Virus record (IMG/VR): IMGVR_UViG_3300049491_001100
Coordinates: 1 to 55,857 of that record
From: a virus
Lineage: Duplodnaviria; Caudoviricetes
Reading direction: 5' to 3' (one strand)
DNA length: 55,857 nucleotides
A program made the position numbers and the translations under genes. The notes under the pieces were generated by a model. It was not told the DNA's origin. It made no database searches and saw only the letters and a program-made list of their open reading frames with translations. Of this stretch, positions 15,720 through 35,808 are shown piece by piece (the stretch's first letter is position 1; the number at the start of each line of letters is the position of its first letter).

Positions 15720-16889
15720 ATGGCAAAGGGATTTGGCAAGGCAAACCTCGACAACACCTACGAAGGCTTCAAGTACTTCAAGCTCCGCACCCCCGACCAG
15801 CGCAAGGGCGAAGAGTCGACGGAGCTGGTCCTCCGACTGCTGCCGGCGATGCACTCGTACGAGGACACCAGCGACTGGAAGTTCTACTACGGGCAGCACT
15901 ACGGCTACTTCGGGAACAACCCCCGCAACCCCGAGAAGCCCCGCTCGCGCCCGTTCGGCTGCATCCAGAAGAAGAACAAGAACAAGGAGATCGTCATCTC
16001 CTGCCCGAAGTGCGTCGAGATCGAGGGCGTTCGCGCTCTCCAGAAGAAGCGCGAGCAAGAGGTCGAGGCGGCTCACCCCAGCGCCGGTGACAAGGAGCTG
16101 CGCGAGATCAAGCGCGCCGACGACAAGCTCGCAGCCCTCGGCAAGTGGCTCTCCAACCACAACTGCGACAAGAAGTTCTGGATCAACTGCATGAACATGC
16201 AGAACGAGTTCGGCGTCCTCCAGCTCTCCTACAAGACCACGCAGGAGATCTTGATCCCGCTCCTCAAGAAGCTGCGCGACGAGGAGAAGATCGACGCCTT
16301 CGACGCGACCGCAGGCGTCTGGCTCAAGTTCACCCGCACTGGCGTCCGCCCCAGCGTCACCGACCGCATCGAGGTCTTCACCGAGACCGTCGACATCGGC
16401 CAGGGCCGCAAGGCGAAGATCAACAAGGTGGCGCCGCTCACGGACGAGCTGATCGAGAAGGCGCTCAAGATCTGCCCCGATCTCAAGACCAGCGTCGTCA
16501 AGTTCATCCCCGTCGAGACCATCCAGGCTCTCGTCGACTGCTCCGGCGACCCCGATGAAGTCGATCGCATCTGGCCGCAGGAAGCCGCCAAGACCGCGAC
16601 TCCGGCGGCGGCTGCCACGACCACGGTCATCGAGACCAAGACCGTGGTGAAGGAGCCAGTGGGACTCAGCGCCACCGTCGATGACGACGAGGACGGCCCC
16701 GTGGACGACGAGGAAGTGACTTCGGCTCCGGCTCAGGCGGCTTCGACTGCGCTCACGGAGGAGGAGCAGTTGGAGGCGCAATTGGCCGCCATCCGCGCCA
16801 AGAAGGCCACGCAAGCGGCCCCGGCGGCATCCGCTGCCCCCGCAGGCGATCCGGCCGTCGACGACTTCCTCTCGAAGTTCTCGGCGTAG
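15720..16889 (+). CDS. single-stranded DNA-binding protein, T4 gp32-like
   Basis: LRLLP, Zn ligands (C..CPKC), FWINC, G.WLKFTRTG, acidic tail ending DDFLSKFSA; located between dnaE and recA. Confidence 0.8.
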   Translation: MAKGFGKANLDNTYEGFKYFKLRTPDQRKGEESTELVLRLLPAMHSYEDTSDWKFYYGQHYGYFGNNPRNPEKPRSRPFGCIQKKNKNKEIVISCPKCVEIEGVRALQKKREQEVEAAHPSAGDKELREIKRADDKLAALGKWLSNHNCDKKFWINCMNMQNEFGVLQLSYKTTQEILIPLLKKLRDEEKIDAFDATAGVWLKFTRTGVRPSVTDRIEVFTETVDIGQGRKAKINKVAPLTDELIEKALKICPDLKTSVVKFIPVETIQALVDCSGDPDEVDRIWPQEAAKTATPAAAATTTVIETKTVVKEPVGLSATVDDDEDGPVDDEEVTSAPAQAASTALTEEEQLEAQLAAIRAKKATQAAPAASAAPAGDPAVDDFLSKFSA

Positions 16890-16898
16890 TCCAGACCT

Positions 16899-16946
16899 AA
16901 GCAGTGAGGGCGGTTCACCCCGCCCTCACTGCTTTTCTTTTTTTTT
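16899..16946 (+). terminator. rho-independent terminator
   Basis: AAGCAGTGAGGGCGG-loop-CCGCCCTCACTGCTT followed by a long T run. Confidence 0.92.
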
Positions 16947-18826: not shown

Positions 18827-19858
18827 GTGCAGATGTACCACTTCAAGGGAGCAGATCCAGCAGTACTACTCCAGATCTTGAAGGAGTCGCGCCTCAAGTA
18901 CGATCAGACCTCGGTCTCGTACGTCTTCACATGCCCCAGGTGTCAGGGCAAGAAGAAGCTCTATATCCGCAAGGCAGACGGCCGCTTCGTTTGCTGGAAG
19001 TGTAAGGAGACGGAGTCGTACCAGGGTCGGCCAGAGTTTGCCCTCGCCGATCTCCTCAGTCAGCCCGTCAAGCAGGTTCAGTCGCGTCTGTATGGCGGCG
19101 AGCACATTCCTGTCAGTCTCTACCTCGACGTCAAAGTCAAGGACTTCTTCGGCGATGATGACGACGTAGACGACGACGCCGTCGAGATCGCTACCACGTT
19201 CTGGCCCCTGGAGTACCTGCCCATCGATCACGTCCACGCCGCCCGTGGCGCCGAGTACCTGCACGGACGCGGGATCCCGCTCTGGATGGCGAAGAAGTAC
19301 GACATCCGCTACTGCCCACAGAAGCGCCGAGTTGTGTTTCCTGTTAACTCTGGCCCGGCGCTGTATGGTTGGCAGGAGCGTATCGTCATCCCGAACAAGT
19401 TCATCGACGAAGACGGGAACGAGCGAGAAATCCCCAAGATCCTGTCATCGACCGGGATCCCCAGGGACAGGACGGTCATGTTCGCGGACAGGCTGCAAGG
19501 CGTCGACCACGCCATCCTGTGCGAGGGCCCCGTCGATGCCTTGAAGGCCCACTTCTGCAAGGGGAACGTGGCCGCCATGGGCAAGGCCGTGTCCAGGGAG
19601 CAGGTGCGCTTGCTCGTCAACGCCGGCATCAAGAAGCTCTACCTCGCCCTCGACCCAGACGCCGCCGATGAAATCCAGCGCCTGGTACGGAACAACTACG
19701 ACGACTTCGAGATGTACGAGATGATCGCGCCAGCTAAGACCGGTCGCGACAAGTACGACTTGGGGGCGATGGAGTTTGCGGAAGTGGACGACCTCTTTCG
19801 TTCAGCCGCCCGGATCGGACCCGGGCGGCTATTCATCCACCTCAGCTACAAGTACTAG
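18827..19858 (+). CDS. DNA primase (Zn finger + TOPRIM)
   Basis: CPRC...CWKC, YLHGRGI, RVVFP, LCEGPVDAL, LALDPDA; start GTG 18827 or ATG 18833. Confidence 0.88.
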   Translation: MQMYHFKGADPAVLLQILKESRLKYDQTSVSYVFTCPRCQGKKKLYIRKADGRFVCWKCKETESYQGRPEFALADLLSQPVKQVQSRLYGGEHIPVSLYLDVKVKDFFGDDDDVDDDAVEIATTFWPLEYLPIDHVHAARGAEYLHGRGIPLWMAKKYDIRYCPQKRRVVFPVNSGPALYGWQERIVIPNKFIDEDGNEREIPKILSSTGIPRDRTVMFADRLQGVDHAILCEGPVDALKAHFCKGNVAAMGKAVSREQVRLLVNAGIKKLYLALDPDAADEIQRLVRNNYDDFEMYEMIAPAKTGRDKYDLGAMEFAEVDDLFRSAARIGPGRLFIHLSYKY

Positions 19859-21387
19859 AGCCCGATCGAGCGCTTCCAGTTGTTGAAGGTGCCGACGCGG
19901 TGCTTGGCCGTCGAGACCGACAGCTTCTGTCCCTTGTGGGCACCGGACTTGACCTCGAAGTTCTCCATCACGAACTTGAGCAGCTTGGCCGGCGACGCCT
20001 CGCCATCCTCGAAGTACCAGGAGAAGAGGCTGAGTTCGCTGGAGCCGAGGACAGCCGCCCGGAACACGGCCTTCTCCTCATCGGAGCCTGGAGTGGTCTG
20101 AGCCAACTCCTGTCCCGTGGCCGTGACCACACCACCACCGACGAACCCGAGCATAACCGCAGCCCGCTGGTAGTAGCGGACCTGACGCTGGTCGACGCCC
20201 ATGGCCTCGATGAGTTCGGCCACGGTCGTGAGTCCATTCTTCATACCCGTGACCACGGCCCGAACCAGGTCGAGCTGGGCCGCCTGCGGGATGATGGCGG
20301 CGTCGAAGAGAACGGTCTTGACTTCCTTGGGGGTGCAGATGTCACACCCCTCCTGGTGTGTGCGCAGGCGTCGGTTGGCCTCCTTGCGGGCGCTGAAGTC
20401 GACGTTGGCGTTGGTGGTGGTGCTGGTGAGGATGTCCACCATCCGATCGTGCGGCATCGACTCCAGGAGTTGTCCCAGCTTTTCCGATGCCGAGGCCTTG
20501 CGAGCTGCCTGCGACGACAGGTCCAACTGGCAGTTCCTGGCGATGTAGTCGTAGTCGATCTCCTCGATCTCGTCCTCATCTTCGTTGAGCCGATCCATCT
20601 TGGCGACCAGGATGGACTCGGGATTGGGCGAAGATTCCAGGTCGGCACCGGGGTCGCTGAAGAGAGCCACTGCCACGGCCTCTTCGTTGGGGAGGACTGA
20701 CCGCTCCTGCTTCAGGAGCAGGGGCTGGAGGTCGCAGTGGAACCGCTGCTGGAGATAGCGGTAGAGCTTGCGCTCGTTGTCGAAGTGGGTCGGATTCGCG
20801 GTCTCGTAGCGGGTGCAGAAGTTCACGATCCAGCAGCGGGCGTACTGGAAGAGGTCGTTGATGTCGAGGCCGTTCCGCTTGCAGAGGTGATCGTTGAGGC
20901 GGAAGAAGCCCCAGGCCACGCGCTCCATCGTGGGCTTGTACTGGGCCCAGACGTGTGCGGGCGGGTTCACGGAGCGGCGGAACTCGGTGTGACGGATGGC
21001 GACGTCGAAGGCGTTGTCCCGGTAGTGGAGCTTGCGCGGGTTGCCCTTGTCGTTGGCCTCGGGCTCGGCGCCCCGGCTGATGGGTTGGAGGCGTTCGTAG
21101 CCCGCTGCGTCCGTGACCTTCCAGAAGCCCTCCAGGGCCTCGGAGAGCTTCTTGCCGGTCAGGACACCGGCCAGCACCTGGACATCGCCTGCGGGGTCCT
21201 GGGCTGCATCCAGAGCCACCTGGACCTGCATCAGGGTTCCGTCTTCCTTGGTCACGACCAAGTCGCACCCAGCAGCCTTTGAGGGCTGAACATCGATCCC
21301 CACCGCCCGCAGCCACGACCGCAGCGTGTTCACGGCGGTGCTGTTGCGTCCCTGAGCCGTGAATGGAGCCTTCTTCGCGTTGGACAT
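19855..21387 (-). CDS. putative phage sigma-factor-like transcription regulator (sigma2-like + HxxxCxxC + C-terminal winged helix)
   Basis: Start reassigned to ATG 21387 (GAGGAGG RBS; 510 aa); YKPTMERVAWGF...GLDINDLFQYA...TRYE resembles sigma region 2; HQEGCDIC; IPQA...RQVRYY..AA.MLGF...STAKHRVGTF..W resembles a DUF7226-type wHTH. Confidence 0.5.
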   Translation of the reverse strand: MSNAKKAPFTAQGRNSTAVNTLRSWLRAVGIDVQPSKAAGCDLVVTKEDGTLMQVQVALDAAQDPAGDVQVLAGVLTGKKLSEALEGFWKVTDAAGYERLQPISRGAEPEANDKGNPRKLHYRDNAFDVAIRHTEFRRSVNPPAHVWAQYKPTMERVAWGFFRLNDHLCKRNGLDINDLFQYARCWIVNFCTRYETANPTHFDNERKLYRYLQQRFHCDLQPLLLKQERSVLPNEEAVAVALFSDPGADLESSPNPESILVAKMDRLNEDEDEIEEIDYDYIARNCQLDLSSQAARKASASEKLGQLLESMPHDRMVDILTSTTTNANVDFSARKEANRRLRTHQEGCDICTPKEVKTVLFDAAIIPQAAQLDLVRAVVTGMKNGLTTVAELIEAMGVDQRQVRYYQRAAVMLGFVGGGVVTATGQELAQTTPGSDEEKAVFRAAVLGSSELSLFSWYFEDGEASPAKLLKFVMENFEVKSGAHKGQKLSVSTAKHRVGTFNNWKRSIGL

Positions 21388-21414
21388 GAATCCTCCTCGA
21401 TCCGGTGTGGATCC

Positions 21415-21425
21415 TATAGCGAATC
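21415..21425 (-). promoter_or_regulatory. phage motif GATTCGCTATA (minus strand)
   Basis: Only minus-strand copy seen; upstream of the sigma-like gene RBS. Confidence 0.8.
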
Positions 21426-21466
21426 TACAACAGCTTTCTGGAGCATATTTTGCCCCAGCAAGAGCC

Positions 21467-21495
21467 AGCGTACGCGAGATCGCTCGACCTGTCAA
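21467..21495 (-). promoter_or_regulatory. sigma70-type promoter for the sigma-like gene
   Basis: TTGACA-17 nt-TACGCT on the minus strand. Confidence 0.75.
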
Positions 21496-21545
21496 CAGGA
21501 TATGGCCATTCACGTACTTTCAGACACTTAGCTACAACAGTCGGA

Positions 21546-21556
21546 GATTCGCTATA
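21546..21556 (+). promoter_or_regulatory. phage motif GATTCGCTATA
   Basis: Upstream of the clpP-like gene. Confidence 0.8.
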
Positions 21557-21576: not shown

Positions 21577-22188
21577 ATGACCATGCCGACCCCGGAACAG
21601 AATGTCATCAACAAGGTCGAGTCCTGCGTCTCCTTCGAGAAGCGGACGCTGTACGTTATGGGAGACGTCGACGACGATCTCGCCTACCAGGTCCAGGTGG
21701 CACTTGAGGCCCTGGACTCAACGGATGGCGACATCCGCATTGTCCTCAACAGCGAGGGCGGGGAAGAGCAGCCCGGGTACGCCATCTACGACGCCATCAC
21801 CATGTGCCGCAACAAGGTGATCATCGAAGCCTATGGCAGTGTCATGTCCATTGCCGCCGCCATCTTCCAGGCCGCTGATGTGAGGCGCATCTCCCCCAAC
21901 GCCGTCTTCATGATCCACAACGGCAGCGTCGATACCGAGGGCAACGTCCAGCAGGATGCCGTCCTGGACCTGGCGGAACAGATCAAGAAGGGCGCCCAGC
22001 GCTACTACGACATCCTCATGCGCGGCTCCGGCCAACCCCAAGACCTCATCGAGCAATGGTGTCGCGATGAGACCTTCTTCAGCGCTGATGAAACTGTGTC
22101 GGCGTGCTTTGCCGACGAAGTCATCAAGCCGGTCAAGGTCAAGGCACCGGTCAAGCTCAAGAAAAGAAAGAGAAAGGCTAACTCATGA
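21577..22188 (+). CDS. clpP: ClpP-like protease subunit
   Basis: NSEGG, AIYDAI, MSIAAAIF (catalytic Ser), FMIHN (His), ETFFSADE. Confidence 0.88.
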   Translation: MTMPTPEQNVINKVESCVSFEKRTLYVMGDVDDDLAYQVQVALEALDSTDGDIRIVLNSEGGEEQPGYAIYDAITMCRNKVIIEAYGSVMSIAAAIFQAADVRRISPNAVFMIHNGSVDTEGNVQQDAVLDLAEQIKKGAQRYYDILMRGSGQPQDLIEQWCRDETFFSADETVSACFADEVIKPVKVKAPVKLKKRKRKANS

Positions 22189-34954: not shown

Positions 34955-35158
34955 GTGGACCGGCTCACCCGCTTCGTCCTGTGGCTGCTCGGCTGGCGCG
35001 CCTGCCTGGGGCGCGACGCGCGCGGCGAGCGCTACGAGGCCTGGGTGCGCCGGGGCTCGTACTTCCACGTGTACCACGAGCGCGTCGCGTGGGAAAACGT
35101 CATCCGCCCAAATACCCCGTTGACACCCCAACGGGGTGCGCGTAGGATGAACCCATGA
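34955..35158 (+). CDS. hypothetical protein
   Basis: Adjacent GTG-start ORF. Confidence 0.45.
   Translation: MDRLTRFVLWLLGWRACLGRDARGERYEAWVRRGSYFHVYHERVAWENVIRPNTPLTPQRGARRMNP
35120..35148 (+). promoter_or_regulatory. sigma70-type promoter, leaderless geometry
   Basis: TTGACA-17 nt-TAGGAT-6 nt-ATG (35155). Confidence 0.75.
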
Positions 35159-35808
35159 GCACCTACACGCACTACACCGCCGAAGACGACCGCGAGTGGG
35201 ACCTGGAAATCACCGGGTTCGAGCCGTACCATGCCGGCAGCTACTGGGATCCGCCCGAGGGCGGCTTCGTCTACATCGAGGGGGACGTCGTCGAAAGCCT
35301 CCCGCGCGGCCACCAGGGCCCGCCCGAGTGCCTCGACCTCGACGCCTGGCGCGCCCGCTACGGCATCACCGACAAGGCGTTCGCCGACATCGAGGACAAG
35401 GCCTACCAGGCCATCGTCGACGCCCAGGACGAGGGGCCGGACCCCGACGAGATTCGCTATTTGGAGGGCATGGCCAAGTTGCGCCTCCAGATACCCAACC
35501 AGCCCGACCGCCGCCACCTCTTGGAAGTCAAGGACGAGATGCGGCGCCGGGGCTCCCCGCGCATCCGCGCCGTGCGTACCAAGAAAGGCTGGGTCGCCCT
35601 CGAAGGCTCCCACCGGGTCACCGCCGCTCAGAAGCTCGGCATCCCCATCATCCTCATCGAGAAGAAGCCCGACGACCGGATGACACACGACATCTGGACC
35701 GGCTACGGCCGGCCAGAGCTTCCAATCCGCGCCACCGTGGCGCGGATCCTGGAAGAGTTCGAGTATTGGGGTCGGCCGGTCCGACGCACCGTCCTCGTCA
35801 TCCGCTGA
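35155..35808 (+). CDS. two-part ORF: acidic N-terminal domain + ParB/Srx-like C-terminal domain with its own internal start at 35470
   Basis: LEGSHRVTAA..LG ParB-like motif; promoter motif 9 nt before the in-frame ATG 35470. Confidence 0.65.
   Translation: MSTYTHYTAEDDREWDLEITGFEPYHAGSYWDPPEGGFVYIEGDVVESLPRGHQGPPECLDLDAWRARYGITDKAFADIEDKAYQAIVDAQDEGPDPDEIRYLEGMAKLRLQIPNQPDRRHLLEVKDEMRRRGSPRIRAVRTKKGWVALEGSHRVTAAQKLGIPIILIEKKPDDRMTHDIWTGYGRPELPIRATVARILEEFEYWGRPVRRTVLVIR
35451..35461 (+). promoter_or_regulatory. phage motif GATTCGCTATT (intragenic)
   Basis: 9 nt before the in-frame ATG 35470. Confidence 0.7.

Follow-up and report, generated by a model that had tools for sequence, protein, structure and literature searches.

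Does a phage gene lying on its own strand among the replication genes encode the factor which directs RNA polymerase to the short, repeated motif that also precedes the gene itself? We have addressed this question in IMG/VR virus record IMGVR_UViG_3300049491_001100 (Duplodnaviria; Caudoviricetes), analysed over its whole length (55,857 bases, GC 61.6%; hereafter the window), which is about one third of an Mx1-like myxophage genome, the CheckV completeness estimate being 34%. The gene occupies positions 19855-21387 of the minus strand, encodes a protein of 510 amino acids, P0001, and is preceded by one copy of the motif, GATTCGCTATA. We give a probability of roughly 0.55 to the reading that P0001 is an early-made, non-canonical sigma-like factor for promoters of this Mx1-like myxophage which lack a -35 element. 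No sequence criterion places P0001 in the sigma-70 family, and it is filed here as a protein that would work like a member of it. On the evidence of structural models, a sigma-2-like domain is very probable and binding to core polymerase plausible, a combination which we consider likely. The role of specificity factor for GATTCGCTATA promoters is inferred from the co-occurrence of protein and motif, from timing signals and from the absence of any other candidate in the window.

The sigma region 2-like core

Residues 140-232 of P0001 (20692-20970, minus strand) are predicted to form a helical domain resembling sigma region 2, and the segment for which the original prediction, made by eye, had proposed this likeness (residues 148-196) falls inside it. 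Residues 100-356, folded alone from a 150-sequence alignment, gave a model with a predicted local distance difference test score (pLDDT) of 92.3 and a predicted template modelling score of 0.75. In an exhaustive VIA-align search of 48,161 representative chains, at least 19 of the best 50 matches, which are those listed, were sigma factors or sigma-derived proteins, or 22 if three chains of sigma/anti-sigma complexes whose identity is unconfirmed are counted. All of these sigma matches fall on model residues ~39-134, equivalent to residues 140-232 of the protein, most with a root-mean-square deviation (rmsd) of 2.1-4.1 Å over 67-84 residues. Among the matches listed the closest is AR9 gp226, of which residues 179-266 align with a Z score of 6.8 and an rmsd of 2.5 Å over 81 residues; the published sigma-2-like domain of gp226 comprises residues 184-264 (PMC9209446). 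The N-terminal domain of SigE (Z 6.5), pro-sigma-K (6.4), residues 376-446 of sigma70 (6.2) and Taq sigma-2 on -10 DNA (5.8) are also present, together with the extracytoplasmic function (ECF) sigmas L, H, W and K, sigma-28 and sigma-32. Structure prediction, which had been suggested as a check for a sigma-2 fold, thus aligns residues 140-232 with sigma-2 of many sigma factors, at the level of fold only, with Z scores of 5-7 and an rmsd of 2.1-3 Å over 67-81 residues.

Sigma factors also account for most of the top Foldseek matches to the model of residues 100-356, none of them significant, and re-alignment of the Foldseek list identified 44 of its 50 entries as sigma chains by title, with Z scores of 4.3-7.0. 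In a language-model search of the ESM Atlas with residues 120-356, 30 hits carried a name, of which 26 fell into the Sigma70_r2 set with a score of 0.92 and four were clusters named RNA polymerase-binding protein. The weight of the fold match therefore comes from the dominance of sigma factors in these lists and not from any single score.

Docking on polymerase was modelled by co-folding residues 100-239, with their alignment, and residues 220-350 of the Myxococcus xanthus beta' subunit, used as a stand-in which may not be that of the host. Co-folding with the clamp helices had been put forward as a check on P0001, and the model gave an interface score (ipSAE) of 0.75 (0.73, 0.76 and 0.75 in individual runs) whereas none of three controls scored above 0.09; for comparison, 58 of 80 solved complexes attained the mark used for this score, as did 2 of 110 mismatched pairs. 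At least 73% of the contacts recur between runs, and the pLDDT of the partners is 73 or higher. The predicted interface involves both clamp helices (beta' 268-299), which are contacted by residues 170-188 and 127-147 of P0001, the former a helix carrying the conserved D178 and A183. As modelled, this docking is the arrangement adopted by sigma region 2.2 on the clamp helices.

P0001 is therefore predicted to resemble the sigma-70 family, especially group 4 (ECF) and group 3, in its three-helix sigma-2-like core, in the acidic linker which follows it and in docking on the clamp helices through a region 2.2-equivalent helix. In addition, one member of its own family, P0114, ends in a helix-turn-helix (HTH) with weak matches to HTH_23, Sigma70_r4 (E 0.0016) and IclR. 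Unlike the sigma-70 family, P0001 shows no profile match above cut-off and no recognisable sigma-3 or sigma-4, and has an extra N-terminal nuclease fold, a His-His-Cys-Cys (HHCC) zinc domain at the place of sigma-4 and an optional tandem winged helix. It also differs from AR9 gp226 and phiKZ gp68, which serve phage-encoded multisubunit polymerases; no such enzyme is annotated in Mx1 or was found in the window and the partner of P0001 would therefore be the host enzyme. T4 gp55, a late sigma, and SPO1 gp28, a middle sigma made early, are precedents for reading a single short element without a -35 box or for an early-made switch to the next gene class. Compared with what is generally known of these two proteins, P0001 is distinguished by its 510 residues in four domains.

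The phage motif and the signals upstream of the gene

The motif is present in the window far more often than expected, TTCGCTATA occurring in 13 copies versus 0.05 expected, a number reached in 0 of 100 shuffles, and TTCGCTAT in 19 copies versus 0.37 expected. It is always co-oriented with genes, 18 of the 19 copies lying on the plus strand and the lone minus-strand copy preceding the minus-strand gene for P0001, and it precedes genes of replication and nucleotide metabolism as well as the gene for P0001. A weight matrix constructed from the 19 sites contains information only at -3 to +8, yielding aGATTCGCTATa, and none at the -35 position, in agreement with the proposal that these promoters lack a -35 box. 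The motif frequently overlaps the stop codon of the upstream gene and lies 9-40 nt 5' of the next start. In 7 of the 19 copies, with motif starts at 1385, 7011, 10832, 26727, 30631, 31079 and 35453, the TATnnn hexamer ends 5-7 nt 5' of the ATG, a spacing to be expected of leaderless transcripts should TATnnn act as a -10 element; were the motif a promoter, the mRNAs of these seven genes would have little or no leader. Other copies are followed by leaders of 16-37 nt with Shine-Dalgarno sequences. The motif resembles the CTATAGG core of T7-class promoters; a T7-type polymerase (PF00940) was not found in the window, a 34%-complete fragment, and the control genomes were silent for PF00940 as well.

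The gene for P0001 starts at an internal ATG, at 21387, of an open reading frame (ORF) spanning 19855-21513 on the minus strand, terminates with a stop codon at 19855-19857 and has a codon-position GC content of 0.63/0.43/0.83. On the same strand, a ribosome-binding site, GAGGAGG, can be read at 21392-21398, 4 nt 5' of the ATG, followed upstream by the GATTCGCTATA copy at 21415-21425 and by a host-type promoter-like site, TTGACA-17-TACGCT, detected by motif scan at 21467-21495. Gene, motif and ribosome-binding site are thus all found where they had been reported. A divergent GATTCGCTATA copy at 21546-21556 on the plus strand precedes a ClpP-like gene (21577-22188). The promoter-like site had been called near-consensus, a term which is generous since TTGACA and the 17-nt spacing are present and the -10, TACGCT, agrees with TATAAT at only 3 of 6 positions; a stricter promoter scan omitted the site. 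Two sites of the form TTGACA-N16-18-TANNNT occur in the window versus 0.25 expected, 3 of 100 shuffles reaching two. The other one, TTGACA...TAGGAT at 35120-35148 (plus strand), is directly 5' of an ORF at 35155-35808.

By eye, a TTGAC(A/T)-17-TAnnnn site is observed upstream of all four homologues for which upstream sequence is at hand, those of the window, of the related loci L002 and L003 and of Mx1, which fits early expression by the host holoenzyme. The upstream promoters of the L002 homologue are of the host type only. Since, among the four, the phage motif stands upstream only in the window, the positive feedback initially proposed for P0001 is not a conserved feature.

Co-occurrence of gene and motif across related phages, another expectation of the original prediction, is observed in L002 and, as regards the exact motif, not in Mx1. 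L002 contains eight copies of TTCGTTAT, six of them as GATTCGTTAT, at minus-strand positions 388, 4102, 4990, 6063, 9641, 12164, 15456 and 20000, all on the strand of the replication genes, and this motif, GATTCGTTATA, is one base off that of the window. The L002 homologue is 49% identical to P0001 and is a short form without the winged-helix domain, which suggests that the winged helix is not needed for the motif.

Motif-like elements of other forms are detected in Mx1. There, AGATCCGC is found directly 5' of the -10 in TTGACA-type early promoters, and TAGATCAAC at 11 sites (for example 84516, 85279, 125834 and 128511), the class TAGATCAAC-N3-4-TAnnnn being located 5-20 nt 5' of start codons, a position analogous to that of the window motif; CTCGCTATTA sites are few. 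The Mx1 early promoters at ~86-121 kb (L005, L006) have the form TTGACA-N9-AGATCCGC-TAgtAT, and their -10 is often flanked on both sides by the halves of an inverted repeat, AGATCC-N8-GGATCT, reminiscent of an operator to which a dimeric regulator would bind. In the 445-bp non-coding gap 5' of the Mx1 homologue (7505-7949 of L001), a GGTTCGAACC stretch resembles a tRNA T-arm. A crude upstream k-mer search in the distant loci recovered through their RecA-like gene gave no clear motif; one of these loci, the 21-kb IMG/VR locus L010, contains the palindrome CCTGCAGG in 14 copies versus about one expected.

Flanking domains, family and genome setting

The full-length model (pLDDT 84) is divided into four parts and agrees with the architecture first described, that is, a degenerate PD-(D/E)XK domain, a sigma-2-like domain, an HxxxCxxC domain and a DUF7226-like winged helix. 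Residues 6-99 (21091-21372; this and the following domains on the minus strand) form a small alpha/beta domain, the fold of which is probably a degenerate version of that of PD-(D/E)XK nucleases (D42, Q54, Q56); ESM Atlas structure matches to it are clusters of PDDEXK_5 and of group I intron-associated endonucleases (template modelling scores 0.45-0.52) and Foldseek, with the domain searched within the larger model, gives a weak match to I-Ssp6803I (2ost, probability 0.69, E 0.74). Across 61 diverse family members D42 is present in 41, E54 in 12 and K or Q at position 56 in 13; P0001 reads D, Q, Q and a D...E-V-K pattern is kept in some close relatives. With its catalytic triad lost, the N-terminal domain is probably a binding module and not an enzyme. 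It is joined to the core by a mostly non-helical connector, residues 100-139 (20971-21090), delimited by conservation and by the co-fold and highly conserved (P102, R105, G106, R132, H133, R137), with R105 present in 61, R132 in 59 and H133 in 58 of the 61 members.

Downstream of the core, residues 233-292 (20512-20691) constitute an acidic linker predicted with lower confidence (pLDDT 50-65 when the whole protein is modelled and 74-88 when residues 100-356 are), in which PDAET and DxDYIxRxCELD are conserved in alignment A1. Residues 293-351 (20335-20511), delimited by conservation, form a three-helix domain ending in HxxxCxxC (H344, C348 and C351; 20335-20358). H313, H344, C348 and C351, conserved in 57, 57, 57 and 55 of the 61 members, respectively, are probably a zinc site. 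The HxxxCxxC and the further conserved His 31 residues upstream are shared with zinc-binding anti-sigma (ZAS) factors of the RsrA and ChrR type. P0001 is unlike ZAS factors in that its chain ends or turns disordered right after the CxxC, in the fusion of the zinc domain to a sigma-2-like domain and in the absence of an anti-sigma fold among the structure matches, none of the VIA-align matches listed being a ZAS chain.

Residues 360-510 (19858-20310) form a tandem winged-helix DNA-binding domain, DUF7226-like, with VIA-align matches to the MarR family (Z 8-9) and, over ~140 residues, to the recognition domains of FokI (D1-D2, Z 8.2, 142 residues aligned), N.BspD6I (Z 8.4) and BrxA (Z 7.6). The Pfam model DUF7226 (PF23871) matches residues 387-480 of P0001 at E 0.0057 and 17 bits, below the cut-off of 27, and matches 5 of the 61 members at E <= 0.01 (best 1.1e-6). 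Other C-terminal additions in these members are I-HmuI NUMOD-like modules (four) and the I-TevI DNA-binding module (one), most members having no module at all.

Combined, these domains suggest how P0001 could act. The host holoenzyme would transcribe the gene early from TTGACA-17-TACGCT, and residues 140-232 of the product are predicted to dock on the host beta' clamp helices via helix 176-193 in the manner of region 2.2. In what is the weakest step, polymerase would then be redirected to the 12-bp, -35-less promoters aGATTCGCTATa of replication and nucleotide-metabolism genes and of the P0001 gene. The acidic linker and the HHCC zinc-binding three-helix domain would replace sigma-3 and sigma-4, the N-terminal nuclease-fold domain, its triad lost, would probably serve for binding, and the C-terminal tandem winged helix would be an optional add-on.

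P0001 belongs to a large family without a name in Pfam, PHROGs or NCBIfam. A near-length search returned 23 relatives, comprising long forms of ~500 residues and short forms of ~360 residues which end after the CxxC, often with an acidic tail. An exhaustive profile search identified 995 cluster representatives (50% identity) at E <= 0.001, 200 of them at 1e-30; unlike P0001, most are 320-400 residues long, match profile positions 1-340 and do not have C-terminal winged helices. The most conserved residues among the 61 diverse members are R105, G96, P102, R132, H133, R137, Y150, F161, N165, D178, N204, Q214, R215, H313, H344, C348 and C351. For P0001, Pfam returned just the sub-threshold DUF7226 match and PHROGs and NCBIfam returned nothing; across the 61 members PHROGs gave only the unnamed phrog_27818 (four members) and weak matches to a few families of endonucleases or regulators. 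A BFVD search detected one homologue only, uncharacterised. No description of the family was found in the literature search, which included the Mx1 announcement, PMC7824862 and a 2026 myxophage preprint. Short forms and some long forms (P0008, P0012, P0015, P0017, P0019, P0022 and others) share a conserved acidic tail, G-x-EEDEDLAG-x-DALS-x-x-E, which P0001 lacks. The tail is reminiscent of those through which phage proteins for replication and late transcription bind their partners.

The plus-strand genes of the window extend to ~41 kb and encode an SbcC-like ATPase, a B12-type ribonucleotide reductase, DNA polymerase III alpha, a RecA-like protein, a Toprim primase, ClpP, an aminotransferase, an RNA ligase, a dUTPase, RNase H, two superfamily-1 helicases, a CCA-adding enzyme, a peptide deformylase and a metallophosphatase; a leftward block which includes a Kelch-repeat protein of 1216 residues follows. 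The datasets listed as containing this stretch include one DNA run, from a freshwater sediment metagenome, and no RNA data. On the basis of codon-position GC, the gene for P0001 is the sole convincing minus-strand gene from 1 to ~41.9 kb, the remaining long minus-strand ORFs in this interval being shadows of plus-strand genes, and its description as the only leftward gene of the replication arm is thus borne out to that point. It overlaps the convergent primase gene (18827-19858, plus strand) by four bases at the stop codons (19855-19858), and a terminator looked for between the two was not found. A strong terminator-like hairpin, with a 15-pair stem followed by a T run, occurs elsewhere on the plus strand (16899-16934), 3' of a gene at 15720-16889.

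The sole named relative of this phage is Myxococcus phage Mx1 (169,621 bp), with which it shares its gene set. A megablast of the locus versus phage records gave zero matches. The shared genes include a true homologue of P0001, WNM70287.1 (hypothetical protein), 30.9% identical over residues 20-253 and, like P0001, antisense next to the primase gene. A search of viral contigs with the RecA-like alignment A4 yielded six loci (L009-L014), of which L010 and L013 contain the homologue, L009 and L011 break off too close to the RecA gene for its presence to be judged and L012 and L014 have no homologue detectable by tblastn. Neither alignment A1 nor the RecA-like protein on its own retrieved relatives from viral contigs. 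The homologue adjoins primase or RecA-like genes in all five phages examined (window, Mx1, L002, L010, L013), being antisense in the first four and co-directional in L013.

Weight of the sigma-like reading and its alternatives

A number of results weigh against a sigma-like role for P0001. Sigma70_r2 matches none of the 61 members, no sequence profile reaches a curated cut-off, and profiles A1 and A3 gave chance-level rows only versus PDB sequences, such that the profile checks initially suggested did not detect the likeness which VIA-align indicates at fold level. The sigma70-ECF profile TIGR02937, with its cut-off of 42.9 bits, gives faint matches (best E 0.004) to 4 of 61 members, including P0010 (residues 156-295, E 0.014) and excluding P0001, and the faint NCBIfam matches to RsrA anti-sigma (nine members), RseA (one) and FliA (one) are all far below cut-offs. 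Structure searches are open to a similar reservation as Foldseek returned nothing from the PDB at E <= 0.001 for either model and every sigma Z score is below 8, a range which can mean only a shared helical arrangement. The co-fold result may reflect model memory of solved sigma-2/clamp-helix complexes; these are well represented among solved structures and the result therefore indicates likeness, not binding. A sigma-4 HTH is not recognised in P0001, with no match to Sigma70_r4, HEAT-like hairpins as the only VIA-align fold matches to residues 293-353 and long alignments of sigma28 and SigH running over these residues at an rmsd of 12-15 Å, as had been anticipated from the sequence. The NUMOD-like and I-TevI additions at the C-terminus of some relatives are, as judged from sequence matches, typical of homing endonucleases. 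Finally, the tie between protein and motif is co-occurrence in two phages alone, the exact window motif being absent from Mx1.

An unlikely alternative, albeit the one which survives best, is that P0001 mimics sigma in order to compete with it, the sigma-2-like domain occupying the clamp helices and the ZAS-like zinc domain possibly holding sigma, such that host sigma is displaced while a canonical phage sigma from a gene located elsewhere, comparable to WNM70309.1 of Mx1, reads the GATTCGCTATA promoters. The fold and co-fold evidence is the same for this alternative as for the sigma-like reading, and HxxxCxxC, with the weak RsrA matches in nine members and the one to RseA, is consistent with it. 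Phage proteins which displace host sigma are known, phiEco32 gp79 being an example (PMC12276001). A second sigma was itself a possibility raised at the outset as contrary to a role for P0001, and it is partly live in that the annotation of Mx1 includes no RNA polymerase and one putative sigma, WNM70309.1, a real member of the sigma-70 family (TIGR02937, E 2.8e-9; Sigma70_r2, E 4.3e-5) which adjoins late genes. A canonical sigma of this type could read GATTCGCTATA-type promoters, in which case P0001 would more likely be a clamp-helix competitor, and an orthologue could lie in the remaining 66% of this genome. However, no counterpart of WNM70309.1 was found in the 55.9-kb window (34% of the genome), which holds all 19 motif copies, and a six-frame search of the window with PF04542 (Sigma70_r2) gave no match. 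Kinship between the two proteins is not detectable, alignment of WNM70309.1 with the P0001 family alignment by hhalign having a probability of 0.1. Also arguing against competition is the strong conservation of residues outside the predicted beta' interface (R105, N204, Q214, R215, F216), which a pure competitor would not need; N204, Q214 and R215 are candidates for a DNA-facing surface. The RsrA matches (TIGR03988) are weak, with a best E of 0.0091, and a PDB sequence search with residues 287-356 returned no ZAS protein.

Somewhat less probable still is a DNA-acting replication or recombination protein, either an origin-binding initiator or a derivative of a homing endonuclease, whose core merely looks sigma-2-like. 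Synteny with primase, RecA-like and helicase genes, kept in five phages, would be expected of such a protein, as would the PD-(D/E)XK-like N-terminal fold with D...E-V-K retained in some close relatives and a C-terminal fold resembling FokI, N.BspD6I and BrxA. The C-terminal modules of the 61 members (NUMOD-like in four, I-TevI in one, DUF7226 in five) point the same way, but most members have no such module, and the catalytic triad is not conserved (D42 in 41 of 61, E54 in 12 of 61) and is lost in P0001. This explanation also does not account for the sigma-dominated fold matches, the language-model hits or the clamp-helix co-fold score. Least likely is an RNA processing or translation signal in place of a promoter, with P0001 an unrelated regulator, since overlap of the motif with upstream stop codons 9-40 nt before the next start is outweighed by a TATA core fixed at 5-7 nt from the ATG in 7 of 19 copies, by the longer Shine-Dalgarno leaders of others, by AGATCCGC directly 5' of the -10 in clear TTGACA-type promoters of Mx1 and by divergent motif copies flanking an intergenic region.

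The sigma-like reading of P0001 can be extended to its relatives, at present as a tentative proposal which we hold below even odds. P0001 could be the founding example of a large phage sigma family that combines a degenerate restriction endonuclease fold, a sigma-2 domain, a ZAS-like HHCC domain and swappable C-terminal DNA-binding modules and drives host polymerase from 12-bp single-element promoters, many of them yielding leaderless mRNAs. Within such a family, the zinc domain might confer redox or metal sensitivity on the switch or might retain host sigma.

T4 gp55, AR9 gp226 and phiKZ gp68, sigma-like phage factors which sequence searches do not reach, have each revealed new ways of reading promoters. 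The candidate family described here comprises 995 clusters, with a clear promoter motif in two phages, and a culturable relative, Mx1 on Myxococcus xanthus, is available for a direct test. If correct, the sigma-like reading would explain the timing of middle genes in Mx1-like myxophages and would introduce a new sigma architecture, consisting of a nuclease fold, sigma-2 and a zinc domain, through which thousands of hypothetical proteins could be annotated.

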